DNA of 64,000 nucleotides from an uncultured Clostridia bacterium (GTDB taxonomy: Bacteria; Bacillota; Clostridia; TANB77; CAG-508), in the NCBI GenBank assembly GCA_947630065.1, contig CANRGE010000001.1, positions 18,840-82,839 of the forward strand. The letters are read 5' to 3'. Shown piece after piece: positions 6,825 to 57,833 of the stretch; within the stretch, counting starts at the first letter, position 1; each line of letters opens with the position of its first letter. A program made the position numbers and the translations under genes. A model generated the notes under the pieces. That model was not told the origin of the DNA and did no database searches. It saw only the letters and a program-made list of their open reading frames with translations.

Positions 6825-7412
6825 TTACTCACCAATTTCTAAGCCTGTGTGCTTAACTCTTTCTTCAACTTCAGCTTGTTTGCCTTCGTTGAAAGCAGTT
6901 TTATAATCTCCTGTTAAATCATTTTTATAATGGACTATTTCTTGCTCCGTAGAGCGTGTGTGTTTAGTCTCTGCATTTAGATAAGTGATATCATACATCA
7001 AAATCTTTTTTCTCTTTGCTTTTAAACGACTTCTTGCCGCCTCAAAAGTAAGAATTGTTGTTTGAGATATGTGCCGCGCCGCAGCAGCATAACTTTCAAA
7101 ATAAATATTATTAAGTAAGACTGGTTTCTTTTGACCTATATAGCGTAAATTTCTATAATCGTTATTATAAATGTTGCCATCAATATGACTAAGCTTTTTG
7201 TTCTGTAAATACTCACCTAACCAACATTCAGCAACAATTTTATCAATCATTATTTTTTTAGATTTTATAAAGCCAACATAACCATTTTCTTCTAACTTAA
7301 TTTTAATTTGTTTTTTTGATTTTACGTTTCTTAAAATTGTTCCATTCTCATTAACTTCATATAAAAATTTTAATGATTTCACTTTTCTAAACTCAAGGTT
7401 TGAATTATTCAT
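6825..7412 (-). CDS. HNH homing endonuclease encoded in nrdD intron 5, reading in frame into exon 6
   Basis: FLYEVNENGTILRNV (NUMOD4-like) and HIDGNIYNNDYRNL (HNH) motifs. GGAGG RBS. The last roughly 31 codons are the nrdD C-terminus, with a shared TAA. Confidence 0.7.
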   Translation of the reverse strand: MNNSNLEFRKVKSLKFLYEVNENGTILRNVKSKKQIKIKLEENGYVGFIKSKKIMIDKIVAECWLGEYLQNKKLSHIDGNIYNNDYRNLRYIGQKKPVLLNNIYFESYAAAARHISQTTILTFEAARSRLKAKRKKILMYDITYLNAETKHTRSTEQEIVHYKNDLTGDYKTAFNEGKQAEVEERVKHTGLEIGE

Positions 7413-10400
7413 CTCTTGATACCTCCATAGTCATTTTTTTATTTCTGTACCTTAATAGGACACCAACTATGGAAACTTCTTTTAAAAGAATTTACACAAC
7501 TTTAGGGGCATTTCTTTAGGAGATATTAGATAACCCCGTCACTCTTCTTAATCTCTTTATATTATTGCCGCCACATTGTGGACAAGCTGCAATAATTTCT
7601 CCCGTATATCCACAATCATCACATAAGTCATTCGGCACGTTTATAGCAAAATAAGGAATATCCTTATCCATTGCATAATTAACAATTTCTTCCAATGCGT
7701 TTATATTGTTTTGAAGATTGGTGTCCATTTCTACATAAGTTATACAGCCTGCTGAACTATAACCTGTGAGCTGACTTTCTATGTCAATTTTAGTGAAAAG
7801 GTCTACCTTTTCCCACACAGGAACGTGCATAGAATTTGTGAAATATTTATGGTCACTTACATTAGGAATTTCACCGTATTTTTTCTTAAATTGTTTCATT
7901 GCTGTAAAACAAAGATTTTCTGCCATTTATACCCTCGGTTTCCCGATATTTCTTAGGGGATTAGACTATATTTTCATCTAATATTCCCATTAGCGAAATA
8001 TTAGAGCCTTATCTTTCGCCGCAAGGCTACTCTACTCATTTATTCACATAAGAATTTCTCTCATGTTATACTTTCGATAGTCGTTAGAGAACAATGTTGT
8101 CCTACGGGATTAGCTTGCCATTTAGGTTTAGCCTTTCTTACCAACTTATTACGTTTGCCCGTTTAATAAGGTTTGTCATTATAGTTACCTATAAAGCTCC
8201 CAACAATTTTTAGGAGTATAATAAACACCAAAATTCAGCTTATATTCATTCTTAAATTGTGTACATCTATCTTTAAATAATTGTTCAATTCTTTTTGCTA
8301 AAACCATTCCTTTTTCATGAGCTTGATTAGTTTCGATAAGAATTTCAAGAGTTTCAGCAAGACCTAATTGCATTTATACCCTCGGTTTCCCGATATTTCT
8401 TAGGGGATTAGACTATACCATAGATTAACTAATCTCAACCATTATAGTCGTTGAAGCTTCTTCTCAAAGAGAAGTTTGCCTGCGTTTGATTGTCCAATCT
8501 TTGATGATTTTACCATACTGTTTCCGTTACTAAACACCACAGTAGCGTCACCGCGACTGCTTGGTTATCAAAGCTCTAAGGAGTTCCCCGCAATTTCGGT
8601 TGTTTAAAGTGAGCCAATTTTTTAACCCACCGCAAGTGTACCATGAATAAGAGCTGACCTAATTCCTTGTTCTGGTATGTAACCTGCCATTAAGCCATTC
8701 TCATACATAAATCTTGCACTTTCCATAGGTTGAGAGCATATCCACTCAAACCTTTCAATCAACATATCTTTTGCTTCATGAATTTTTTTATCAAGTAGCT
8801 CCATAAAATCTTCTACTAAATTATTAGAACCACTTTCTTTTACTTCCATGGCTAAAGTTGGTAATATAATGGTTACTGGACAAATGTTTCCTCGTCCATC
8901 TTTAAGTTGTCCTAAACCATTTATATCCCAGCCATTAGCTGTTCTACACGTGTTTATCTTATGTCACCATAAGCACTGACTATATGTTCTCTTACTAAAT
9001 AAGAGCCTCCCGCTTGGGGTTAGTGCCTATCTCTAACCCTACTCTGCTACACTCATCACAGATAGTCGATACATTTTATTTTTCATAATACTAAGAAATT
9101 TTTTTAAGAATATTACAAAAAATCTTAACACGGTCTCAGCTTTACTTAATAAAGTCCTAACCGTTAGCCTGTTTATACAGACACCCGTTGGCACGGTTCA
9201 AGAGGTTTTAAATGGGCTAAGTTTACGCCTACCCATTGTACTAAATTCTGTTTTAGGGTCGTCTGGGTCATACCCAGCATTACCTGTCCAATCTACATTA
9301 GCATAATTGGGATATAATCTCAAAGCCGTAGATTTTAAGGCTAATTTAAATAAATCATAATTTGGGTCGCCCTCATTACGATTGATTCCTTTTTTACACT
9401 TAAAAATGCCACAAGGAAAAATACTTGTTTTATGAAATTTCCCTACACCATTTATTGAACCCTCTATTAAAGATTTGATTACCATACGTCCTTCAAGAAG
9501 TGTGCAAGTTCCATAGTTAATTGAGGTGAACGGTCGGTTATGTTATCGTAAAGGCTTTTTATCCTTTACTTCTTATAGTTTCCTATAAGCCCAGCATACA
9601 TTTTCATCTTCGTCATTACACGTTAAGAGTCGAACACTCGTGGGTAGATTATATTTATTCACTACCTATGCGTTACGGTGTCTTTTAGCCTTTCGCTATC
9701 TAAAAGATTACCTCGGTGTTATCATATTTTAACAAAAATTGTGATATTGTAAAAAATTATTATATATATCTTTTTTACGAGTAAGATAAATTGTTGAATC
9801 ATTATATATCCAATCCCCTAAAATTTTCATATCTTTAGTACTTGCAACTTTTATTTCACTTAAATGTCTATCTTTATAATCACGAATTTTTGGTTGATGG
9901 CTTAATTGTAATTGTTCATATATATATCTTGCTATATCGTCCATTAGTTGATGAGTGCCACAAAAATGAATATATTGATAATAACGTCTATTATACTATT
10001 TTGCTGCTATACTTCCATCGCCATCAAATATTCCACGAATAAGATGAGACATTAAATTATCATCTATTTTTGGCAAATAAGTATGTAAAGTTTTTCGTGA
10101 GATTACACCGTATTTTTCAAGGTCTTTTGCCATAACATTACTGCGTACTGCAATTGTTTCACAACCTCGTCCATCGCAGTTTACAGAGGTATTTGCTTGC
10201 AAAACTTCTTTAAATTTTTCAAGCATATATCTATCTTTTTGCTATAAAGTAATAGATATAGATGCTTGCCTTCTACTATTTCTGTCTATAAAAACATTAC
10301 CATCTGTAATTAACAACCCTAAAAAATAAGCGGCAATTTCATTATCTATTGTTTGAAAAAAATGTTCTTTTAGGTTAGGATTATATAATTTTGCTTTAGG

Positions 10401-12973
10401 ATATTTAGGTATATTTGCAAGAATTTTTGTTATTGTTGGACTACATAAATTATATTTATCTGCTACTTGTTTTATTGTCATAGGTTGAGATAAATAATAT
10501 TTTATAATTTCTTGCTTTAATTCTTCTGTTATAATTTTACTTGGCATTATTCATCTCCTTTAAAATATTTTTGTTAAAACTTAGACTTTCACCGATTTTG
10601 CTCGATTTTTTCTAAAAAATTTCTTTTTTAGACAACCATACATTTTAGCTGATTTCCAGAGCGGCTTTGTAGAGAATTTAGGTTGTGATACATTCCTTCA
10701 ACTGCTTGGTCTAATTCCTTTTGTGTCATATCAAGTGCATATTGATAACTTCCTTTGTCATCATAAATATAAGTATCTGATATACTGTATTTGTCAGAGT
10801 CTTCTTTTGAAATACTAATTTCCTTTTTATCTTTCGCTATATATTTTAGCCCATCACAATAGTGCTTATAGAATGATTTTCTTACATAAGGAATCATTGT
10901 CCAATCTAAATGAGTAGCTGAAACTCCACCAAACTGATTTAACGATTGTAATTGAAAAATTACTGCTATTAGTTGAAAAGCCGTTTCGATACTATTAGCT
11001 GGACGTATATCTGTTTGACGTGTGTTAAATCCCTTAGCCAGCAAATCATCGAACGGGACAGATAAACAATTGTGTGATACATAATTATTTACAATAAACC
11101 AGTGTGATAATGTTTCTAAATCATATACATCTTCTTTTAAAGGCTCTGTTGTAATTGATATAATTTTTGTTTCATTAAAATTATTACTAATACCCATATA
11201 AGCATAAGAATCATTATATTTGAATGTATTTAATTCAGATTGTAAATTATAAACATCATCAGTTCGACCCACTGTTAAATTGAAACAATCATAATTTCTT
11301 GTTCCTGTTTTTCCTCTAATTTGATAGGTACTACCTTTTTTATTTATCAATGTTATGTGAGAAACATAGCCTAATTCCTTTAACATCATTGCTAATTGTT
11401 GCAAATAAGATTCACAGCAAGAAGTATAAGTTATTCCTCTACTTGTTACACTACCATCAGTATCTATACAAGCTGATAAATAAGCTAATTTTATTTTCTT
11501 ATTACCATTTAATACAAAATTAGGAACTGATATATCTCCTGCACCATTCTTCTTTGCTCCTGCAAAATTCTTAAATAATTTTACAATTATTCTTGAATCA
11601 TCTGTTACACGTATACAAGGTGAAGTGTGCCATTCTTTTGCATAAGATTTATTAAGATGCTTACCAAAAACAGCCTCATAACATTTTACAAAATCATCTA
11701 TTAGTTCTTCATTTATATTAGTAAATGTTAGAGAAAAAGTACTACTCTTTTCATTAATATATACACCACCATCTGCATATATATAGGCATATATTTTTGC
11801 AAGCTCAGGAGAATAAGGTATATATAATGGATATTCATTTTTACTACCACAGCTTTTAATTTTCAAAGAAGAAATAACATCAAAAGACAACGGATATTCT
11901 TTTGTAATTTTCTTAAAATCATTTAATTTTAATGTCAATGATGATGGCGGCAATTCAAAATTATGTTCTTTTGCAAAATCTGAAAATACTATATTATATT
12001 TAAATCTCAAATAATGTCTTAACACAGATAAGTTAGTAATTCTCAAATCTATTTGTTCATCATTTAATTGAGTTAAATCCAAAAAGCTACTCGCTATCTC
12101 TTCCTCTGATAAAGTTAAATTTTCTATATCTAAAAGACAATCACCTTTTTTTAGGTCTTTTACTTCTTTTAGCACTTCTTTACCATTCTCTATTATAGGT
12201 AATCTATGCTCACCAGTTAATTTTATTGGTATTCCAGAACGAGTTTTGATTGTATACAATAGTTCTTTGTCTTTCGGCGACCTTTTTGTAATAGATATTA
12301 GTTTTGTCCAGCCATCACGTGATAAAATAGAATAATTATCATTTTCGATAATAGCTATTTGATTTGTTTTAAGTAAAAACCTGTTTGCCAAATCCTCAAT
12401 TTTTATTGTTTCTATTTCATTATTATGTTTAACTTTAATAAATGATTTTCCTATAGTACAATTGTGTGAACCTATAGCATAACTATCTAAGTCATGAATG
12501 TAAATCTCATTATTTATATGATTATTTTTAGACATTTCTGACATACAGTTATCTAACGCATATTGTTTAAGAACCGTATTATTAACAGCTCCAACTCGTC
12601 CTCCAAAAGACCTTTCATCAACATTAGCGTTCTGATTTTCTACAATTTTTGCACCAATTTTATCACTAATTTCTTTCATAAGTTTAGAATTAGATTCTCT
12701 AACTCTTGTTCTATCATTACGATAGATGATAAAAGCTTTAGCAATATCCTTTCTATTACTTTGCATTAGCTTTTTTTCAATTAAATTTTGAATTTCTTCA
12801 ACTTCAATATTTGTTTCTTTTTTATTTTTTATTTCTGCTGCAATTTTTTCAGCAAGCTCTAAAGTTTTCTTATCCAAAATGGTATCAACAGCTAATGTCG
12901 CTTTGTTAATTGATGAGATAATTTTCTTTTCATCAAAAGCAACCTATCTACCATCTCTTTTAATTACATACAT
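6825..12973 (-). CDS. nrdD: anaerobic ribonucleoside-triphosphate reductase, split into 6 exons by 5 group I introns and carrying an intein
   Basis: Exons: 12973-10647 (intein 12460-11069), 9534-9231, 8948-8625, 8370-8212, 7923-7533, 6919-6825. Joining restores VIKRDGR(TAG)VAFD, IHDLDSYAIGSHN|CLSVPFDDLL, SGNQL|PFTSINYGT, STMG|CRTANGW, TLAVG|QLGLAETL, GVYYTP|AENLCF and RRVTG|YLTGDYKTAFNEGKQAEVEERVKH. Segment lengths sum to a whole number of codons (about 735 aa). Confidence 0.85.
6920..7532 (-). mobile_element. group I intron 5 of nrdD (613 nt, HNH ORF)
   Basis: The 5' exon ends ...ACGGGGT and the intron ends ...AAAAATG (terminal G). Splicing gives GGG T|AT TTA, which is G-Y-L of the glycyl-radical motif. 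Confidence 0.7.
7924..8211 (-). mobile_element. group I intron 4 of nrdD (288 nt, no ORF)
   Basis: The exon ends ...TATACTCCT and the intron ends ...GGGTATAAATG. The junction restores YYTP|AENL. GC-rich structured interior containing CGACTAT. Confidence 0.7.
8371..8624 (-). mobile_element. group I intron 3 of nrdD (254 nt, no ORF)
   Basis: The exon ends ...GCGGTGGGT and the intron ends ...GGGTATAAATG. Its last 47 nt are identical to intron 4. Confidence 0.7.
8949..9230 (-). mobile_element. group I intron 2 of nrdD (282 nt, no ORF)
   Basis: The exon ends ...ACAATGGGT and the intron ends ...AAACACG. The junction restores MG|CR at the active-site Cys. Confidence 0.7.
9535..10646 (-). mobile_element. 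group I intron 1 of nrdD (1112 nt, LAGLIDADG ORF)
   Basis: The exon ends ...AATCAGCT and the intron ends ...CATAACCG. CT|A CCG TTC restores SGNQL-PFTS. Confidence 0.75.
9729..10547 (-). CDS. LAGLIDADG homing endonuclease (double motif), 2 in-frame TAG
   Basis: Track ORFs 10242-10547, 9996-10226 and 9729-9944 share one frame and are separated only by TAGs at 10242 and 9996. Motifs YFLGLLITDGNV and LIRGIFDGDGSI. True stop is TAA at 9729. Confidence 0.8.
11069..12460 (-). mobile_element. intein (464 aa) with LAGLIDADG endonuclease domain in NrdD
   Basis: Begins C-TIGKSF after ...GSHN and ends ...VYDLETLSHWFIVNNYVSHN, followed by +1 Cys (CLSVPFDD). Block B is LTGEHRL. Endonuclease motifs IYAYIYADGGVY and LSACIDTDGSV. 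Confidence 0.85.
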
Positions 12974-13052
12974 AATAAAAACCTCCCATTTTTATTTCTA
13001 TGCAAACGTAAGAGTTTTGTTTTACGTTTCCATTTTCATCACCTCTATTATT

Positions 13053-23719: not shown

Positions 23720-24676
23720 TTAAATAAAATCATTAAATTCTTTTTTTATTCTTTTGATTTGTTCCTTAGAGAAATTTGAAAAATCTATATGAGAATTAAA
23801 ATTATCATAATTTAAAGAACGTGATACATCTTGTAGATGATATATAGCATAATTCCCCAATGCCACATTTTTTATTTCACGCTATTCTATATTTATTAAG
23901 CCCCAACTATTTAATAAATTAAGATATAAACGAATATTGGTATAACATATACTATTTGTATCACCATGACCCAAAATAAAACAAATATTCCTTATAGAAA
24001 AATCCTTATCATAAGGTATTGATGTTTTATTTAACTCTTTTAAATATAAGTATGTTCTTAATAAATCTATATTTTGACTATTTACCTTTGCGGGTTTTAG
24101 TAAAATTTCTGTAATTGCTTTATCATAATCTGTTGAAAAATTAGGAGTAATATAATAGTAATCACAATCTATCTTAATTAAATTATTATCACATAATTTA
24201 GCTAACGTATTATAAAAAGTTTGAGTACTTTTAATTCCTAAATTTTTACAAGTTTCTGAAATATTAAAGAAGTTTTTATTTATTCTTAAATTAGTCTATT
24301 CATCTGTTAAAATATTAGCTAAATTTATCATATAATAATATAATAACCACTATTTATTAGTTAATTTAATAGAGGAATTATCAATATTATTTTGACAAAA
24401 ACTTCCCTCGCCTCCAATAGTTCTATTATATCCATTTTTATAGCTATCATAGTAGCTAATCCAAAACTATTCTCTTTCATTTAACTATTGCTATGAACAT
24501 TCTTCTATAACATCAAAAGAAAAGTTATCTATTCTATTTACTTTCATATCCTAATATAAAGGATTATAAAGGTCTTTACATTTTTTATGTTCTCTCCAGC
24601 GTCTTTTAATATCAATAGATTGTCCTATATATACTTTTTTATTAACATTATTAGTAATTTTATAAATTCCTATCAT
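23720..24676 (-). CDS. free-standing GIY-YIG homing endonuclease (318 aa, 7 in-frame TAG)
   Basis: MIGIYKITNNVNKKVYIGQSIDIKRRWREH...NERE(TAG)FWISYYDSYKNGYNRTIGG. AGGTGA RBS. Absent from the ORF track because of TAGs. Confidence 0.75.
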
Positions 24677-24741
24677 TATTATTCACCTTATATAAAAAAG
24701 AAAGTTAAAGCCTATAAGACTCCAACTTTCTTTAGCTAATA

Positions 24742-24957: not shown

Positions 24958-25102
24958 ACCTTACTTCATGAAGTATTTTTCATATTAGAAAATTTAATTA
25001 TAATAAAACAATAAACACAAGCGTTCCAACAATTTGTTTTATCAATTTAACTTTACTATTTACTTTTAAAGGTAAGCTGAAAGTTATTAAAGCTGACCCA
25101 AG

Positions 25103-25176
25103 TTACGGTGGAAGGATTTGAACCTTCGGAGTGACGGAGTTAGAGTCCGCTGCCTTACCCGCTTGGCTACACCGTA
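25103..25176 (-). tRNA. suppressor tRNA, anticodon CUA (reads UAG), tRNA-Gln-like body
   Basis: TACGGTG TA GCCAAGCGGGTAAGGC A GCGGA CTCTAAC TCCGT CACTCC GAAGGTTCAAATCCTTC CACCGTA A. The anticodon is at 25141-25143. U1-A72, the D arm and the anticodon-stem GGA/TCC core match the tRNA-Gln(UUG) at 30050-30121. Confidence 0.85.
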
Positions 25177-28312: not shown

Positions 28313-28561
28313 TTAAAAATTTTCAATCAATTTTCTGCCACATTCTGGGCAAAATTTTGGAATATAATATCCTATATCTTCTCATTCGCCTCTACTTTCA
28401 TTCCATTTTGAAAATATGACTGTTGTTGCCATATTACTTCCAGATTTTATTTGTATATCATAGTCTTTTAAAGCTATACCAATTCCTATATAACTTAAAT
28501 CATTTTCTGGAGTTAATATTGACTCAACGGCGGCATTACAATAATATTTACAATATTGCAT
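28313..28561 (-). CDS. small Cys-rich protein with an in-frame TGA at 28382-28384
   Basis: The ATG overlaps the RNA ligase TAA (TAATG). MQYCKYYCNAAV...KWNESRGE(TGA)EDIGYYIPKFCPECGRKLIENF then TAA. The 22 codons after the TGA look coding (zinc-ribbon CPEC) but have no start. Confidence 0.4.
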
Positions 28562-29871
28562 TAAACACCTTCTTTCATCAATTCTTCAACTTCTTCTATG
28601 TCAGGTACTTCTGCTGTATCTTTAATTATGCCTTCTAATACCTTAAAGGCAAACGATTTAGTTTTATAAGCTGTAAAATGAGTTCTATTATCAATTCTTA
28701 CTACAACACCTTCAGTAACATGACTACCATTTGCTAAGGGTTCAGGTATATCCAAATATTTTTCGCATCTCTCATTTAAATCTTCCCAAGTTGTATATAA
28801 AAATTTTTCAACAAGCGGCACATATTCACAACCAAATCTTTCACACCATTTTATAGTTTCCTCTGTAGGTAATTCTATAGTTAATCCATCATCATTAGTT
28901 AAAGTTATACGATAGATATAACATTTATTTTCACCGCGGGCGCAACCATAAGTGAATATTGTTTCTTTTCCATACATTTTTTTGAAGTTTTTGTCTTTTA
29001 ACTTACTATTATCACACGTAGGCATTATAGGGGTATTTTCATCTATCCAGCCAACTATTTCTCCATATACAGTCATGCCTTTAGGCAATTTGTCAGCAAA
29101 AAAATTATGATATTTTTCACGGAATTTATTAGAGCCGTAAAAGCCACCATTAAAATTATCAAGAACAACACGACGAGTACCACTAACAACTTCAAATTCA
29201 GATTTAGTTTTGTCTTTTAAATGGAAAAGTTTCTTTAATATTTTATTTCTTTTTATGGTAGTAACCTTTAAAGTATTACTTACTCTAAAAGAAGTGCCAT
29301 GAAGCTTTCTGGTTATGTAGATAATATCATTTTTTTTGAAAGCACTTTCATTGTAAGCTAACTGTGCAGTGTCTATATGTTCTTCAAAGTAAGGGAAGCC
29401 AACAGTTTTGCGAGCTTCTTTTTTATTTTTAGCAATTTTAGGATTAGAAACATTAGATACTGTTTTACCGCGAGGTATATATTTCTGACATATAAGTTCA
29501 CCGTTAAGGACGGCAATTTTGTCGCCGTCAGATAATTTAGTTATGTCAGTATATTTTGCTAATACAGAAATAGGTAAGGCAAGACCATCAGATTTTTCGC
29601 CGCGAAGATTCAAAGCGCGTATGTTTCTTTTGTAAGGGTCAAGATAACCACCAACATTATTTCCATTTTCATCTTTCCTACGAACTAAATTGTTTTCGTT
29701 TGCAAATTTTTCACTAACTTGACCGTCAACAGGAAAATAAACAACTTTATCACCAACCTTATAGTCTAAACCAACTATAACGTTGTTGCCAAATATTTCG
29801 CAGCACTGTAATCTATCTGCATTAGAATGTTTGCGGATTTTATTTATAGTAGTTATATATGCACAATACAT
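28561..29871 (-). CDS. ATP-dependent RNA ligase (N-terminal OB-domain type)
   Basis: N-terminal INKIRKHSNADRLQCCEIFGNNVIVG...VVYFPVDG, motif I ITRKLHGTS, motif IV TEGVVVRID, motif V FTAYKTKSFAF. Sits between two tRNA islands. Confidence 0.7.
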   Translation of the reverse strand: MYCAYITTINKIRKHSNADRLQCCEIFGNNVIVGLDYKVGDKVVYFPVDGQVSEKFANENNLVRRKDENGNNVGGYLDPYKRNIRALNLRGEKSDGLALPISVLAKYTDITKLSDGDKIAVLNGELICQKYIPRGKTVSNVSNPKIAKNKKEARKTVGFPYFEEHIDTAQLAYNESAFKKNDIIYITRKLHGTSFRVSNTLKVTTIKRNKILKKLFHLKDKTKSEFEVVSGTRRVVLDNFNGGFYGSNKFREKYHNFFADKLPKGMTVYGEIVGWIDENTPIMPTCDNSKLKDKNFKKMYGKETIFTYGCARGENKCYIYRITLTNDDGLTIELPTEETIKWCERFGCEYVPLVEKFLYTTWEDLNERCEKYLDIPEPLANGSHVTEGVVVRIDNRTHFTAYKTKSFAFKVLEGIIKDTAEVPDIEEVEELMKEGV

Positions 29872-29909
29872 CTATTTCTCCTTTCATATCTCTCATCTTT
29901 ACTATAATT

Positions 29910-32245: not shown

Positions 32246-32314
32246 TGGTACTGATAGTAGGACTTGAACCTACACATTTGATATAATCATTGTTCTTCAT
32301 TAAACTATATCAGC
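32246..32314 (-). ncRNA. tRNA-like element X2 with encoded CCA and a 3-nt loop in place of the anticodon loop
   Basis: GCTGATA TA GTTT-AATGAA-GAAC A (A)TGAT-TAT-ATCA(A) ATGT GTAGG-TTCAAGT-CCTAC TATCAGT A CCA. Standard cloverleaf spacing except the anticodon loop is 4 nt short. Ends 3 nt before X3. Confidence 0.45.
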
Positions 32315-33149: not shown

Positions 33150-33460
33150 TGCAGGAAAAGGGACTTGAACCCTCACGACCGAAGTCAATGGATTTTCGTA
33201 CCACTCTATGTCACCATAGCCATTTTACAATGTTGTGGTCTGGAGTACGTCTTTACCATATCTTATGACTTAGGTAGTTGGTGTATACTCTCTACACACG
33301 GTTAAAAACCTTGCACGGCGTTCTCTATTCGCCTTCGCCGTTTTAGCCAACTTCTACTCTTAGCGTTTCCGCTAAGGCACTCTCTATTTTTTAAATAGTA
33401 TTACTTAAAGTAACAGAATAGATTAAAGTCCATTGCGTCTGCCTATTCCGCCATTCCTGC
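33150..33460 (-). tRNA. tRNA-Leu (anticodon UAA) interrupted by a group I intron in the anticodon loop
   Basis: 5' exon 33460-33426: GCAGGAA TG GCGGAATAGGCAGACGC A ATGGA CTT. 3' exon 33196-33150: AAAA TCCAT TGACTTCGGTCGT GAGGG-TTCAAGT-CCCTT TTCCTGC A. Joined loop is CTTAAAA. The mature class II tRNA is 82 nt. Confidence 0.85.
33197..33425 (-). mobile_element. group I intron (229 nt) between U34 and A35 of tRNA-Leu(UAA)
   Basis: Follows a U and ends in G (…GAGTGGTACG). Same insertion point as the classical cyanobacterial and plastid tRNA-Leu intron. GC-rich paired segments such as GCCTTAGCG-GAAA-CGCTAAG and GGCG..CGCC. Confidence 0.8.
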
Positions 33461-33475
33461 ATTTTCTATAATAAT

Positions 33476-33504
33476 ATTATATCATAGATTTTTTAGAAAA
33501 TCAA
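33476..33504 (-). promoter_or_regulatory. sigma70-type promoter, family copy 12 (tRNA-Leu UAA)
   Basis: Minus strand: TTGATT, 17 nt, TGaTATAAT. The predicted start is about 10 nt upstream of the tRNA 5' end. Confidence 0.6.
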
Positions 33505-33526
33505 ATATTTATTTTTAATTTTCTAA

Positions 33527-33596
33527 TTTTCTTGGTGGGAGTCGAACCCACATTACCTACTTTATGTAGGTATCCTTCCATTTAGACCACAAGAAA
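33527..33596 (-). ncRNA. unusual 70-nt tRNA-like gene (anticodon loop CAUAAAG)
   Basis: Perfect acceptor TTTCTTG/CAAGAAA, T arm GTGGG-TTCGACT-CCCAC, anticodon stem ACCTA/TAGGT. The loop has A at position 33 and would present UAA on a class I body with a 3-nt variable loop. Confidence 0.45.
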
Positions 33597-33600
33597 ACCA

Positions 33601-51469: not shown

Positions 51470-51627
51470 AACTAAAATAACTTATAATATATATATTATA
51501 AAAATATTATTATAACAATATATTATTACATAAAAATAAATATTATTTATATAAAAAATTAAATATTATATAGATATTTTAATATTATTTAAAATAATTA
51601 TTTAAAATAAATAGGAGGGAGAAAATT

Positions 51628-54600
51628 TTGGCAACTTACACACAAGCTGAATTAAATGCTTTTAAAAGCGCAATGACACAAATTGTGCCTATAATTAGTG
51701 GCGCAACTCCTATATCAATGGAAGAGGCAGTTAGTTTTTTATCTACTTATGAAGGTTTAGAAGATACAGTAAAAAACCCTATAAAATTATGGGAACTAAT
51801 GGTGAATTATCTTGCTAATGAAAATTAGTCAGGATTCTTAGGATTACCTCTTATTAGTCAACAAAATTTTGCAGGAAGTAATAACAACACTATTTTTGCT
51901 TATCTTAATAACAACATAGATTTACCTGATAGCAGATTCAAAACTCTTTTAAATAATTATAAAGGTTAGATAGATTTAAGTACACCCAGCGGCACAACTT
52001 ATAATGCACCATTTTGGAATGAATCTGTTAGCTATTTAATGGCAAATTTACTTGCAGATTTTGATTTATCAACTATCAAATCTTTAGAAAATTAGGGATT
52101 TAATGAAAATATCTCACCCGTTCAAAGACCTAATGCACGAATAAAAAATAATGGACAAGCTGCATTTAGAATTACAGATGTAATATCAGCAGATGCAGGA
52201 AGAGATTTTAGCCAATACTATGTAAGACCATCTTATAATATTCAAGGACAAAAATATACTGATGTAAGAAATAGTGATTTAATTTCAACAGATGCAAAAA
52301 ATTCTGGACAATTATAGTATACAAATTCTACAAATGATTATTTAAGATTGTTAATGCCTATGTATACTCGTCAAGTTAAAGTTGAAGATTTAGATAGAAA
52401 TTTTTGGGTAATTGGACAATCTATTGCGGCAATTTGTGCTTATTTATTTGAAGATGATTCACCTTTAGTAAATATACTAAATAAAATGTTAAATGAAATT
52501 TTTCAACTTTGGGAAAATGTTTTGTTTTTATGGGTATTAACTGCATTAAATACTTATAAAGAAGAAGAAAAATATACTGATGTACATTGTGAGGTTGTTC
52601 CTTATCCTCAAAATGCTAATATGCATAATTATAAATATGATAATGCTTATTATAATGATGTGGATTTTGATGGGAATAGTTTTAAAGGAACTCTTTATGA
52701 TTTTGGTGAGGGTATAAAGGGTGAACTGATTACTACTGATTCTACTAATGCTACTTATTCAAAAATTTTGAAGAATAATATAAAATTATTTAGTTACTTA
52801 AAAGACAGCTATCCTAAAAGTAATTTATGTATAATACCTTTTATTAGATGTCATAATTATGAACATAATTATTATAGTGTTGAATATTATCCCGGTGTAA
52901 TTTACTATGATAGAAATAGTGACAAGTGGGGTATGTAGAGTTTTAAAATAAATCAAGAGAGTGACACTACAAAAAAACCAGATTATAGAAGTTATGATGC
53001 TAATTTAGATAAATCAATAACTGTACAAGATTTAATACGTATGCAAAAATATATCAATGGTGATGAGGTAGATTTTACAGGACAATTATATTCAGAGTTA
53101 ATAAAAAATAATACTATAGAGCAATATTATAAGATAGACCCAACAAACAATTTAAACGATTTTATAGTCGGAGATGCCAACAATGATAAAGAAATCAATA
53201 TAAAAGATACTATACGTATACAAAAACTTATAAATGAACATAACGATATAGAATTAAACGAAGATGGTTCAATAAAGTCAGAAAGCGGTGGGAATAGTAA
53301 CCCTGGAATAACTGTTATAAATAATGACTATGGAATACTAATTGTTGCATCATTTTATAAACAATATATAGGAGCTATAAGTGATGAAATTGATAATAAA
53401 AGATATTATGTATATCCTTTTTCTGACTTGGAAGAAAAAACTGAATACGAACCTAAAACATATAGAACTATTTTAAGAACAATTTTTGATAATAATAGTG
53501 TAAGTGCTTCTTTATCAGGAAAAGAAATAAATGGAATGAATGTAAGATTAAATAGATTTTCTATGTTAATAGAAGATGTTGCGAGAAATTTAGAAATAGA
53601 AAGTGACCCCGATTCAGAAGAAAACCCCATGCCAATAATTCTATATGAGTTAAATAAAAATGAAACAGATGGAACGTTAGATATAGAAACTGTTTCAATT
53701 ATAAAACAACCAGAAGCTAATCAGCATATTTTAGGTAAAGAAATAAAAATAACAAAAGGTTATTATTTAGGAGAATTAGTTTCTGAAACAAAAAGAAGTA
53801 ATCAAAAAAATTATACTTTTAAAACAAAAGAAATAAATTTAATGCCTATTAAAAATAATTAGGCTTGGAATAATATAAGTAAAATAAATAATTATGACGA
53901 AAATTAGTTTAAACAAATAGCTGATATAGATAAAGATAAGGAGTCAATACAAATAAATATTGTTACTCATGATAGTGATTTATACCATCAAAGTGAAAAA
54001 ACAAATTTACATAAATACTATGTTGATGGTGTTGAAATAGTACCAAATGGCACTACAATTCCAGATAAAATATTAGATGTTAGTTTATCAGATAATAATA
54101 TTATAAGTTCAAATAGTTCTAATAATTTCTTAAATAGTTATAGAGAACAAGTCTATTCTTATGCTTAGATTACTGCTCCTTTTTTAGAAAAAGGAATAGA
54201 TTATTCAAATTATATTGGGTATAATTATCTACCCAAAGCAGGAAATATTACAGATGGTATTGTTTCATCAATACTTGTACCACAAAAAAATAATGATAAT
54301 GGAATATTATCATTACCTTCTGATGAAGATAATGCATCGATTAAAAGAGCAAGATAGTCTTGGGATTACACATTATTTGAAATTTATGCTACAGAAAAAC
54401 CTATAACGAAAGATAATTGGATTATATCGGTAGTAAAAACCAATTGTATTTTTGGTGCTTTGCCAAGTTTTAAACCTTATGACTCCATAAATAATATAAA
54501 AGTTTTGACTAATATATCAGACGATGTATTAACATATGATAAAAATAATGAAGATGTAATCAATATAATAAAAAACATGATAAAAAATAATGTAGTTAAG

Positions 54601-55086
54601 GCTCATATTTCTACAACTTTACAATTAAATAATAGTTCAATAAAAAAATATATAATACCATTCTTTTTAATAGGCTATCCAATGCCAGATAAAGATAATG
54701 AAGATTATAATACATCAGATTACACTAAATTATATAAAGATTTTAATACATTATATGATATTGTAAGTAAGACTGATAATAACAATACAATTAAAACTGC
54801 AATAATGAATAGTGAAATACAACTAATTCCAGCCTTTTTGAATCAACAATGGCACTATTATTTTAATGCTAATGGTGAAGTTCATTATGAACATAAATAT
54901 ATATATAATTATAATTCAAACGAGTCAAATACAAAAACGAAATATGATAATGAACAAGAATATAATAGATTAAAATAGCAAGTTAAAACTTAGGTAAAAC
55001 CATATGGTAGAGAAGCTTCAATAATGGATAATGGAAAAATACCTTTTAATTTTGACATTTATCCACATAATGGATATAATTATTAA
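51628..55086 (+). CDS. giant protein L1 (1152 aa, 11 in-frame TAG), putative virion protein with dockerin/EF-hand-like loops
   Basis: TTG start after AGGAGGGAG. Track ORFs 51628-51828, 52348-52938, 53041-53862 and 54460-54978 are all in frame 1. I checked every gap codon by codon and found only TAG interruptions. TAA at 55084. Confidence 0.7.
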
Positions 55087-55097
55087 GAGATGGTTAA

Positions 55098-57833
55098 ATG
55101 ACTATACAAACTTTTTTTGAGCAACTAAAACAAACAAGTAGTATATTTCCAAATTTAATAAAAAATCTTGCAGATGAATATAAAAAAAGAAACAAATTTC
55201 CTAATATTGACTTCGATAAAGAATTTTTATCATATTTTTAGCAACATATTCCTTTTGAAAAAGCCGCAAATAATTCACCATTAGGAAATATTCAAAGAAA
55301 TATAGATTTAGATGATGAACAAATTGATAATATAATTGAACAAATTTAGAACAATAATCTCACTAATAAACCATGGAATGAATCAGTTGTTAATCTTGCT
55401 ATTGAAATATTAAAATTATCAAAAGATAATTTAATAAAATCCTCTGGTGGAACAGAAGAAATTTTCAAAAAAGCTGACGCTGGTAATTCTTTTACAGACT
55501 TAAACAATGTAGTAAAACCAATGACTAATTTAAGTAATGATAATTTTAAGTCAATTATCGGTAATTCAGCGGAAGTACTTAAAGCATTATTAAATGATAA
55601 GCATATTCAAAAAACAAATAATATAACAGATGAGTACCCTTTTATATCACTCTTAATGCCAAAAAATACAAGACGAGTTGAAATAGCAGATTTAAATAGG
55701 AATTTTTGGGTTATAGGTGCAATTACAACTCTTATTAACAATATGCTATTCAAGCAAGATAATAATTATCAACAAGTTTTTTCTAATATGATAAATGAAA
55801 TTACTTAGTTATGGGAAAATCTACTCTATTTATGGGCAACTACTATTCTTACTGAATTATTAGAAGAAACTCCTCTCCATGTTGAATTTTTATATTTACC
55901 AAATAATGAATTTTAGAATTATAGAAAATTTGATAATTTTGCTTTTAATGAAAAAATAAATAATAACTGGAATTTAGGCAATAAAGACGAAGAAGAAAAA
56001 ATGTTAAAAAGTCGTTTGAATTTTTTAAAATAGAAATATCCTGAATATAATATTTGTATAATTCCAATTATAAGATGTAATAATTATGAATCTAATTATT
56101 ATAAGGAAGAAATTTATGAATGTTTTTATTTTATACCTGCAAAATCGAATAATTATCATATAACTTATATGGCACAATTTACCAATAAAATCAATTTTCC
56201 ATGGCGAAATTCAATTAGTATTGATAATAACTGTATAGCATATAAAAAAGATGATGCAGGAAATTATTATTATATATCTCCTTTTAATAAAGTTTCTAAT
56301 GTTTATGAGTACAATCCTACTAAATACTATGCTGCCGCCAGAATTACGCCAACATTAGAGTACAGTTATAAAAATAATATAATATCCATAAAAGGTGGAA
56401 AAGATAAAGGACTTTCTATAAAAGTAACTGATGCTATAGCTAAGGCAGCGAATTTATCAGAAAGTTTTTCAATGGATATTTTTTTACAAAATAATTTACA
56501 ATATAATTTTACAACTGGAATTATTGAAACGCCTGAATCAATTACAATTGGTGAAGATGGTAGAGAAAGAATAAAAGTATCAGTTTATACTAATTCTCAT
56601 ACAATTCAAATGGACACCCCTAAAAAATTTTCCTTTCTTAATGGTTTTTATTTAGGTGAATGTGTTTCTGATTATAAAAATTCACAAAGTATTTCTTATG
56701 ATTTAGTTCTTAAAGAGATTGAATTAGAACCTTTTATAAATTCAGCTGTAGAAAATACTAATTTTAATGGAGTTTCTTATCCCTCAATTTATACAATCCA
56801 AAATAATGAAGAAAAAATCAACCCCATTTTTTCTGAAAGAGCCAGTCTCGAAAATAGTGGAACAATTATAGAAAGATACACTAAAGATAATTAGACAGAA
56901 TTTTAGGGTACATCTTATATGACATTAAATGTTGGGAGACATTCCATAGGTTGGTGGGGTGAGGGTTCAACAAAAACAGAATTTTGGAATATAAAAAATG
57001 ATAAATTGCTTCTTGATTCAAAAACTATACCTTTTACTCATCATTCTGGAAACTTATATAAAGGTGCAGCGTTAGTTGACCCATTAAATGATAAAATAAC
57101 TTCATATTCTGAGTACTATTGGTATACAACAGGAATACCTGGTATTGCACCATATGTATTTAAAGATTCAGGTTTTACATACTGGATGCATAATAAGAAT
57201 TTTACCTTTATTTATACTAAAAATGGTGAAGATTTAAGTAGTGACAATTGGATAATTAGATATGTTCAATTTTCTGGTGCGCTTACATTTGATACATAGT
57301 CTGCTTTTCAAAATACGGATAATCAAACAATTAAAGATTTTTGTATAAATTTAAATAAATGGAAATTTCCTTTATCAGCTACTAATGATAATACTTTTAT
57401 TTGTTATCAAGATAGCCTAAAGGAATATAATAGCTATTCCTATGAAATAGAAAATGGTGCATTATATACAGGCGGACATAGTTATTTCTATCCAGTAATA
57501 TCAAAAGTACAAACCAATATTTTCTATCCAAATGGAAATTATGATATAAATATAGACGTATTAACTTATAATAATCAACCTATTTATCTTTATAATAAAG
57601 AAATTGACTATACAAATCAAAACTATACTGATTCAAATTGTCCATTTAAGTGGAAATCAATTAAAACAAGTGACAATTATTCCAATATAATATCTCAATT
57701 AACAGATGAAAAACTAAATTCTCCAGTATCAACTAACAAATATTATTGGCTTGGAGATTTCTCAAACACATTGGATTTCACAAAATATCAAATAGATGGA
57801 AAACGTAAAGGACAAAAAACGACAAAAATTTGA
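55098..57833 (+). CDS. giant protein L2 (911 aa, 8 in-frame TAG), paralog of L1
   Basis: ATG at 55098. ORFs 55521-55808, 56169-56894 and 56919-57299 are in frame, and the gaps contain only TAG. Shares LLMPxxTRxVxxxDLxRNFWVIG...NEIx(Q/TAG)LWEN...CIIPxIRCxNYExNYY with L1. TGA at 57831. Confidence 0.7.

Follow-up and report, generated by a model that had tools for sequence, protein, structure and literature searches.

Group I introns in bacterial transfer RNA (tRNA) genes are textbook cases from a few lineages, namely cyanobacteria and plastids, Azoarcus and Agrobacterium, and a 64,000-nucleotide (nt) stretch of contig CANRGE010000001.1 (assembly GCA_947630065.1, positions 18,840 to 82,839; hereafter the window, in whose own numbering all coordinates are given) raises the question whether a phage tRNA can harbor one as well. 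On its minus strand, between 33460 and 33150, two tRNA halves flank a 229-nt insert that a first-pass annotation, made from the sequence alone, had taken for a group I intron. Our analysis supports this reading, with a probability of about 0.85: the locus is a phage class II tRNA-Leu(UAA) gene split between U34 and A35 by an IC3-type group I intron without an open reading frame (ORF), which we infer to be self-splicing. As an IC3 group I intron lodged in the anticodon loop of a tRNA, the element belongs to a known kind; what is new is its host (a phage tRNA), its build (P5 almost absent, P1 loop branched) and the size of its family, overlooked by standard tools.

A tRNA-Leu(UAA) gene split in its anticodon loop

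The upstream exon (35 nt, 33460-33426, minus strand) reads GCAGGAATGGCGGAATAGGCAGACGCAATGGACTT and ends in GGACUU, the insert (33425-33197, minus strand) begins with UAAUC and finishes with GGUACG, and the downstream exon (47 nt, 33196-33150, minus strand) reads AAAATCCATTGACTTCGGTCGTGAGGGTTCAAGTCCCTTTTCCTGCA, opening with AAAAUCC and ending at A73, with CCA absent from the gene. When the exons are joined, ARAGORN calls an 83-nt class II tRNA-Leu(UAA) with a regular cloverleaf, a long variable arm and A73, in agreement with the coordinates and with the gene structure proposed at first pass. Neither plain ARAGORN nor the Rfam tRNA model calls the split tRNA-Leu in the window, and ARAGORN run with intron detection, a check suggested along with the proposal, recovers the split gene and its 229-nt intron unaided, with both boundaries placed one base leftward. 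That the halves might be unrelated tRNA fragments is excluded by the identical arrangement (anticodon stem and CUU, an intron ending in G, then AAAAUC and the complementary stem) in 27 IMG/VR loci from a first scan, in further subfamily members and in many bacterial genomes.

Identification of the insert as a group I intron

At its gathering cut-off of 50 bits the standard group I covariance model, RF00028, gives no match in the whole window. Cyanobacterial tRNA-Leu introns used as positive controls score 86 and 91 bits with the same model, the intron of a phage tRNA-Arg (L053; loci are cited by L numbers throughout) scores 81.6 bits and L077, a member of the window intron's own subfamily, 52.4 bits. 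Because the controls and one subfamily member do score, the silence of RF00028 on the window intron is a gap in sensitivity and not evidence against an intron. A second covariance model, R1, was built on the P3-to-P7' core of ten RF00028-positive IC3 introns from cyanobacteria, PVC, Nitrospirota, Bacillota, Thiotrichaceae and three phage contigs, with P3, P4, P5, P6 and P8 supplied as structure and the window's subfamily excluded. R1 matches 33238-33361 (minus strand) over its full length with 67 bits (E = 1.5e-14), by far the top match in the window. The first-pass annotation had held that the intron should be given up if no covariance model recognized it; for RF00028 this is literally what was found, but the independently built R1 does recognize it. 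Taken with the covariation described next, the U·G pair at the 5' splice site and the terminal G, the R1 match bears out the identification of the insert as a group I intron at U34/A35 of a phage tRNA-Leu(UAA).

Relatives were drawn by pattern scans of IMG/VR and GTDB genomes and aligned with MAFFT (alignment A1, 36 sequences), and the structure of the window intron was projected onto the alignment and its pairs counted. Overall, 87.6% of cells are paired, as opposed to 28-42% when partners are slid by 1-3 columns, changes on both sides occur in 47 of the 68 pairs, and none of 500 shuffles matches any observed measure (0/500). Pairing reaches 90.7% in P2, with double changes in all pairs (8/8), 96.5% in P3 (double changes in 5/6 pairs), 99.5% in P4, 97.8% in P7 (3/5), 98-99% in P8 and 96.5-98.3% in P9, P9a and P9b, again with double changes, and the splice-site U·G is invariant in the aligned homologues (36/36). 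The window copy adds compensatory changes of its own, in P9 (ACCAC/GUGGU vs ACUAC/GUAGU in relatives) and in P7 (GAGUA/UACUC vs GACUU/AAGUC or GACUA/UAGUC elsewhere). P1a and P1b covary as well, but upper P1a, P1b and P6 are poorly aligned by MAFFT and score lower, and they are not relied on. Gene structure, homology, a secondary structure supported by covariation and the family distribution given below are thus established here. A hairpin returned by RNAalifold on alignment A3 (columns 184-186 with 193-195) was left out, as it clashes with P7 and P6.

The elements of the intron are listed in Table 1. In the place of P5 the window intron has a vestigial 15-nt purine-rich loop, AAGGCGAAUAGAGAA (33335-33321, minus strand), which is conserved in the subfamily, and the P7 pairing forms a pseudoknot with P3. 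We take CCUAAG...UAUGG in P8 to be the 11-nt GAAA-tetraloop receptor motif and, by analogy with Azoarcus, the probable docking partner of the GAAA loop of P2. An early P1 model, UCUAUU/AAUAGA, was dropped when homologues placed AAAUAG in the local covarying hairpin P1b. No ORF of 50 or more amino acids (aa) lies inside the 229-nt intron.

Table 1. Split tRNA-Leu(UAA) gene, its intron and the candidate promoter (window coordinates)
Feature	Position	Strand	Remarks
Sigma-70-like promoter candidate, TTGATT-17-(TG)TATAAT	33476..33504	(-)	15 nt upstream of the tRNA
tRNA-Leu(UAA) exon 1	33426..33460	(-)	acceptor 5' strand, D arm, anticodon stem 5' strand, C32 U33 U34
P1 5' strand	33425..33429	(-)	exon ACUU and intron U1; last exon U in the U·G pair at the 5' splice site
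Group I (IC3-type) intron	33197..33425	(-)	229 nt, without ORF
Two P1-loop hairpins	33384..33415	(-)	P1a 33415-33399, P1b 33398-33384; subfamily-specific extension
Internal guide sequence AGAGU (P1 3' strand)	33379..33383	(-)	from homologue alignment
P2 hairpin	33357..33377	(-)	CCUUAGCG-GAAA-CGCUAAG; GAAA tetraloop 33369-33366
P3 5' strand AGUUGG	33347..33352	(-)	pairs with CCAACU, 33281-33276
P4 ACGGCG/CGCCGU	33315..33341	(-)	around vestigial P5; covariation, R1
P6, minimal, GGUU-UUU-AACC	33296..33314	(-)	endonuclease ORF site in longer relatives
P7 5' strand GAGUA	33286..33290	(-)	after conserved J6/7 GUGUAGA; pairs with UACUC, 33247-33243
P8 with CCUAAG...UAUGG	33255..33275	(-)	sequence and alignment
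J8/7 AAAGACG and P7 3' strand UACUC	33243..33254	(-)	alignment, R1
P9 ACCAC/GUGGU	33198..33239	(-)	P9a, GUAA loop, 33232-33221; P9b, GUGA loop, 33219-33206
Terminal guanosine (omega G), 3' splice site	33197	(-)	every homologous tRNA-Leu intron ends in G
tRNA-Leu(UAA) exon 2	33150..33196	(-)	A35 A36 A37 A38, anticodon stem 3' strand, long variable arm, T arm, acceptor 3' strand, A73

Alternative explanations

Several observations weigh against a transcribed, self-splicing group I intron at this locus. RF00028 stays silent up to E = 10 both on a 511-nt stretch and on the intron by itself; the P5 loop has no clear Watson-Crick helix, whereas farther relatives have a P5 of 3-4 base pairs; the reduction of P5 to the 15-nt loop rules out an L9-P5 contact in the form known from Azoarcus; the fold of minimum free energy favors a local hairpin, GUGUGUA-GAGAG-UAUACAC, in competition with P7 and P3; and promoter-like sites are no commoner in the AT-rich window than in its shuffles (4 found vs 4.1 expected). 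The reduced P5, the failure of RF00028 to recognize the window copy and the competing hairpin would also fit a genuine intron that is unable to splice alone, its vestigial P5 making it dependent on a host or phage protein cofactor in vivo, and some group I introns with weakened peripheral domains do rely on proteins. We consider such dependence unlikely: the sequence of the vestigial P5 is conserved throughout the subfamily, including the chromosomal tRNA-Leu of Ruminococcus, and is therefore a functional form under selection, the L2 loop and the P8 receptor are intact and accompanied by three GNRA loops in all, and no candidate maturase gene is found in or beside the intron. Less probable still is an inactivated intron stuck in a tRNA pseudogene, for which the missing RF00028 match and the absence of an endonuclease ORF from the intron might be cited; the U·G pair, terminal G, P3/P7 pseudoknot, J8/7, tetraloop and receptor are all intact, pairing is kept through copy-specific changes (the P9 replacement given above, P3 GUUGG/CCAAC and P7 GAGUA/UACUC), the exons fold into a regular tRNA, and the 67-bit R1 match is full-length.

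The leftward boundaries of ARAGORN would turn the anticodon into GAA and the gene into a tRNA-Phe, as the program indeed calls it in intron mode, and the sequence UU/U...G/A (slashes marking the splice sites) is compatible with either placement. We rejected this call and give it almost no credence, since the intron would then terminate in C instead of G, the product would be a class II tRNA-Phe with a long arm, which is not a bacterial type, and the 5' site after CUU is fixed by homologues whose introns begin with A (L025, L027 and cyanobacteria). The isotypes that ARAGORN assigns to other split tRNAs were set aside as well, an example being the 'Stop(tta)' of L005, which is Ile-UAU by the U...G rule; labels of this kind are unreliable because the intron boundaries are off by 1-3 nt.

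Same site as the cyanobacterial intron, different lineage

The first-pass annotation had equated the insertion point with that of the ancient cyanobacterial and plastid tRNA-Leu(UAA) intron, and for the site this is correct: the junction GGACTT/...G/AAAATCC is shared between the window and about 45 cyanobacterial tRNA-Leu loci. The lineage differs. In distances over 118 core columns of the R1 alignment, a short alignment treated by a simple method, the window intron lies from 0.09 away from phage tRNA-Leu introns (closest eight 0.09-0.17, mean 0.27), 0.17-0.23 from Ruminococcus tRNA-Leu introns and from 0.25 (mean 0.30) from Clostridia tRNA-Asn introns, but from 0.66 (mean 0.77) from cyanobacterial tRNA-Leu introns. 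In the phylogeny that had been suggested as a check, made by neighbor joining, a clade of the window, Ruminococcus and Clostridia tRNA-Asn introns, together with introns of other tRNAs, excludes all cyanobacterial sequences in 100/100 bootstraps, which sets the window intron within a gut phage and Clostridia clade and apart from cyanobacteria, and BLAST finds no matches between the window intron and the cyanobacterial introns. Descent from the cyanobacterial tRNA-Leu intron lineage is thus unsupported by core distances and bootstraps alike. Going by these sequence comparisons, we take the two to be introns of the same kind at the same site but of different lineage, and nothing finer.

Relatives in phages and in Clostridia chromosomes

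By BLAST, the window intron is 79% identical to that of L204 over 227 nt (E = 4.5e-54), and both of its halves are 84-89% identical to endonuclease-bearing relatives of 750-900 nt. In such longer forms P6 holds an HNH ORF (L075, 175 aa; L028; L205) or a LAGLIDADG ORF (L208, 211 aa), and HNH remnants are kept in L019 and L033. Judged from these alignments, the window copy is an ORF-less, minimal form of what would be a mobile intron family.

Relatives at the same site occur on at least 35 IMG/VR phage contigs, and a subfamily pattern spanning P4 and the vestigial P5 is found on 20 IMG/VR contigs, mostly of 100-196 kilobases (kb); several of the pattern-matched IMG/VR loci hold tRNA arrays, two of which include a tRNA(CUA). 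The same subfamily sits in solitary tRNA-Leu(UAA) genes of Ruminococcus and Oscillospiraceae genomes. In R. albus 8 the intron-bearing tRNA-Leu is flanked by genes for an aldo-keto reductase and an integrase, and from this placement we conclude that the chromosomal tRNA serves as an integration site. When GenBank phages were searched with the locus, and with its 20-kb surroundings, matches were confined to the tRNA exons and the intron had none, and the exact exon pattern with a gap has no match in IMG/VR, from which it follows that the window's own contig is absent there.

Farther afield, related cores are found in tRNA-Leu(UAA) of Thiotrichales, and they split the tRNA-Asn(GUU) of many small gut genomes labeled 'uncultured Clostridium/Clostridia' (L085, L086, L088, L090 and about 40 more loci); in the four loci that were read, the tRNA-Asn gene directly follows 5S rRNA. 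The Clostridia tRNA-Asn introns, of about 210-250 nt and likewise in the anticodon loop, belong to the same gut clade and score 90-101 bits with R1; RF00028 does not report them at its gathering threshold. The family extends to other phage tRNAs (L053, L029, L045, L064, L081, L058, L043, L005, L050), among them Arg-UCU, Leu-CAA, Lys-CUU and Ile-UAU, with isotypes that are approximate ARAGORN calls.

Two observations made on these loci stand by themselves. At L011:4297-4734 (A1 columns 500-600) the P9a of a phage tRNA-Leu intron contains a tRNA-like insert of about 100 nt with the T-loop motif GGTTCGAATCC, recalling the tRNA-within-intron idea proposed for Lak phages. ROOL, GOLLD and RAGATH-33 RNAs, all above the Rfam gathering threshold, lie near tRNA clusters on related phage contigs (L045:3362-3925, L025:2879-3444, L053:1207-1645 and L057:1029-1157).

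It is conceivable, at slightly less than even odds, that the window copy is the tip of a large and essentially undescribed mobile IC3 clade that moves between the tRNAs of TAG-recoded gut phages and those of Clostridia chromosomes and has been overlooked as most of its members fall below the RF00028 threshold. On the phage side such a clade may include, besides Leu-UAA, tRNAs for Arg, Leu-CAA, Lys and Ile, subject to the same approximate isotype calls, and on the chromosomal side the tRNA-Leu of Ruminococcus and Oscillospiraceae and the tRNA-Asn beside 5S rRNA of small gut Clostridia. A bolder version is that the ribozyme in the anticodon loop may be adaptive for the phage, either by shielding the precursor from host anticodon nucleases or by tying UUA decoding to GTP/Mg2+ status.

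Phage context, codon use and promoter

The window, with a G+C content of 28%, has PHROG matches to a tail fiber or pre-neck appendage, an endolysin, PhoH, a primase, a DnaB-like helicase, a RecJ-like exonuclease, a topoisomerase II, an RNA ligase and homing endonucleases. Taking TAG as a sense codon lifts the coverage by ORFs of 150 aa or longer from 48% to 77%, 124 in-frame TAG codons occur in the window, and a tRNA with anticodon CUA is encoded at 25102-25176. We identify the window as phage DNA because of the PHROG matches and the TAG recoding with its tRNA(CUA). The endolysin, read by eye, presumably comprises CHAP, GH25 and SH3-like domains, which together with the sigma-70-like promoter candidate would point to a Gram-positive host.

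That UUA is the dominant Leu codon, as had been stated at first pass, is confirmed by its share of 57.5% of Leu codons (ORFs of at least 150 aa, TAG as sense). The corollary that UUA supply depends on splicing holds for the phage's own copy only, as the host presumably supplies a tRNA-Leu(UAA) too. The claim of a dedicated strong promoter stands in part: the site in Table 1 is present and plausible, matching 10/12 positions and having an extended -10 (upstream TG), but sites of its kind are as frequent as the shuffles described above lead one to expect.

Directly upstream of the split gene, at 33526-33597 (minus strand), lies a 72-nt tRNA-like gene, assigned to Leu(UAA) by ARAGORN and given 47 bits by the Rfam tRNA model. 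Its variable arm is short, position 33 is an A and the discriminator base is not A; the minimum-free-energy fold shows a 6-base-pair anticodon stem and a 5-nt loop, AUAAA, and the gene is probably not an ordinary decoding tRNA-Leu. A 66-nt tRNA at 32249-32314 (minus strand) reaches 50.2 bits with the Rfam model and is missed by ARAGORN. An RNA ligase (PHROG 968, 6.5e-72) and a GIY-YIG-type homing endonuclease are encoded among the tRNA genes, at 28561-29883 and 23720-24682 (minus strand), and the ligase hints at the repair of tRNAs cut by host anticodon nucleases.

A candidate second group I intron lies at 6825-7926 (minus strand) in the anaerobic ribonucleotide reductase gene nrdD, where R1 matches 6928-7040 (minus strand) with 18.7 bits (E = 0.006), the match containing GCAGAGACUAAAC...AAUAGUCC and overlapping the 3' end of an HNH endonuclease ORF (6825-7430; PHROG HNH, 1e-11). 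In our own reading of the translations nrdD is apparently in several pieces (7516-12991, minus strand): the fragment upstream of the candidate intron ends in RRVTG and the downstream one continues with FNEGKQAEVEERVKH, apparently interrupting the glycyl-radical motif; an intein with LAGLIDADG-like motifs seems to lie inside a 787-aa ORF (10628-12991); another ORF, at 9729-10550, is one that we take to have such motifs too; and further apparent nrdD fragments occupy 9198-9542, 8622-8963 and 7516-7926. The phage genome seems rich in introns and inteins. Elsewhere in the window, two adjacent large plus-strand ORFs of 1162 and 911 aa (51598-55086 and 55098-57833, TAG as sense) are apparently paralogous, both having RNFWVIG and QLWEN; the 1162-aa ORF (51598-55086) has no PHROG match.

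A model for splicing and its implications

The data are compatible with a model in which the precursor, probably transcribed from the promoter-like site just upstream, would fold into P1-P9, with the guide AGAGU pairing with exon ACUU and U1, so that a U·G wobble marks the 5' splice site, and with the P2 tetraloop, GAAA, probably docking into the 11-nt receptor of P8. A guanosine from outside the intron, bound in P7, would attack after U34; the terminal G (33197) would then take its place, the freed 3'-OH of U34 would attack the 3' splice site, and ligation of CUU to AAAA would restore the anticodon loop CUUAAAA, with the anticodon stem AUGGA/UCCAU, directly flanking the intron, likely holding the exons together throughout. 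RNase P, 3' trimming and CCA addition would complete a tRNA that could add capacity for UUA and UUG, which are the most frequent Leu codons in a genome of 28% G+C. On the evolutionary side, the intron is probably a stripped-down member of a mobile family seated in the tRNA-Leu(UAA) of TAG-recoded gut-type phages and of Ruminococcus/Oscillospiraceae; its spread by homing, like the transcription, tertiary contacts and self-splicing in the model, is what we infer from the features described above.

A single subfamily present in the tRNA-Leu of phages and of Ruminococcus/Oscillospiraceae, chromosomal in R. albus 8, provides a concrete system for the study of intron exchange between virus and host, and a small ribozyme almost without P5 is a natural test of how minimal the P4-P6 domain of a group I intron can be. 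There is also a practical side: RF00028 and default tRNA finders have a blind spot for split genes of this kind, and the tRNA sets of gut phages and Clostridia are therefore under-counted.

Comparison with known systems

The group I introns of cultured phages (T4 td, nrdB and nrdD/sunY; SPO1; Twort) resemble the window intron in being phage-borne and self-splicing, as we expect the window intron to be, often with HNH, GIY-YIG or LAGLIDADG genes, but all of them interrupt protein-coding genes, whereas the window intron sits in a tRNA gene. The candidate intron in nrdD would be of this classical sort. According to a 2014 review, every phage intron then known lay in a protein-coding gene and none in a tRNA, despite the many tRNA genes of phages (PMC3984707); the window locus breaks this rule, and related loci in TAG-recoding phages break it often. 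The first phage tRNA introns were reported in 2019 by Devoto et al. from Lak megaphages (PMC6784885), and like the window intron they interrupt tRNA genes of alternatively coded gut phages. We rejected them as the same element, in that the Lak introns (Table S6 of that study) measure 80-114 nt, follow position 37 (37/38), resemble nested tRNAs, have no Rfam match and lack a group I core (PMC6784885). A 2026 survey describes tRNA introns, possibly encoding another tRNA, in alternatively coded jumbo phages. In the full-text literature that we could search, outside which most subscription journals fall, we found no paper identifying a group I intron in a phage tRNA or in Ruminococcus/Clostridia tRNA genes, and 'undescribed' is meant provisionally in this sense. 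An intron in a phage tRNA is accordingly unusual, as had been claimed at first pass, relative to that literature, but not among IMG/VR contigs, dozens of which carry relatives.

With the cyanobacterial introns the window intron has in common an IC3-type core with GUGYAGAGA, an 11-nt spacer, CUACC and GGUAAAGA, as well as the U·G pair at the 5' splice site; cyanobacterial introns differ in having a full P5 and a short P1 loop, where the window intron has a vestigial P5 and two P1-loop hairpins. The tRNA-Ile(CAU) intron of Azoarcus sp. BH72, the structurally solved minimal IC3 group I intron, is likewise a small ORF-less ribozyme in a tRNA anticodon loop, has the same combination of a P2 GAAA loop with the 11-nt receptor CCUAAG...UAUGG in P8, and is similar in its 5' motif (GUGCCUU...) and core (GUGUAGAGA). 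It differs in its tRNA and insertion position and in a P5 that provides a receptor for L9, whereas the window intron has a vestigial P5 and a P9 forked into two GNRA-capped hairpins. Of the same subfamily is the chromosomal intron of Ruminococcus/Oscillospiraceae tRNA-Leu, which shares with the window intron the P1 hairpins, the GAGAGUGCC guide region, the vestigial P5 motif and P9a/P9b, at 76-78% identity over 165-195 nt, but resides in bacterial chromosomes, in solitary genes outside tRNA arrays and between exons unlike those of the phage tRNA.

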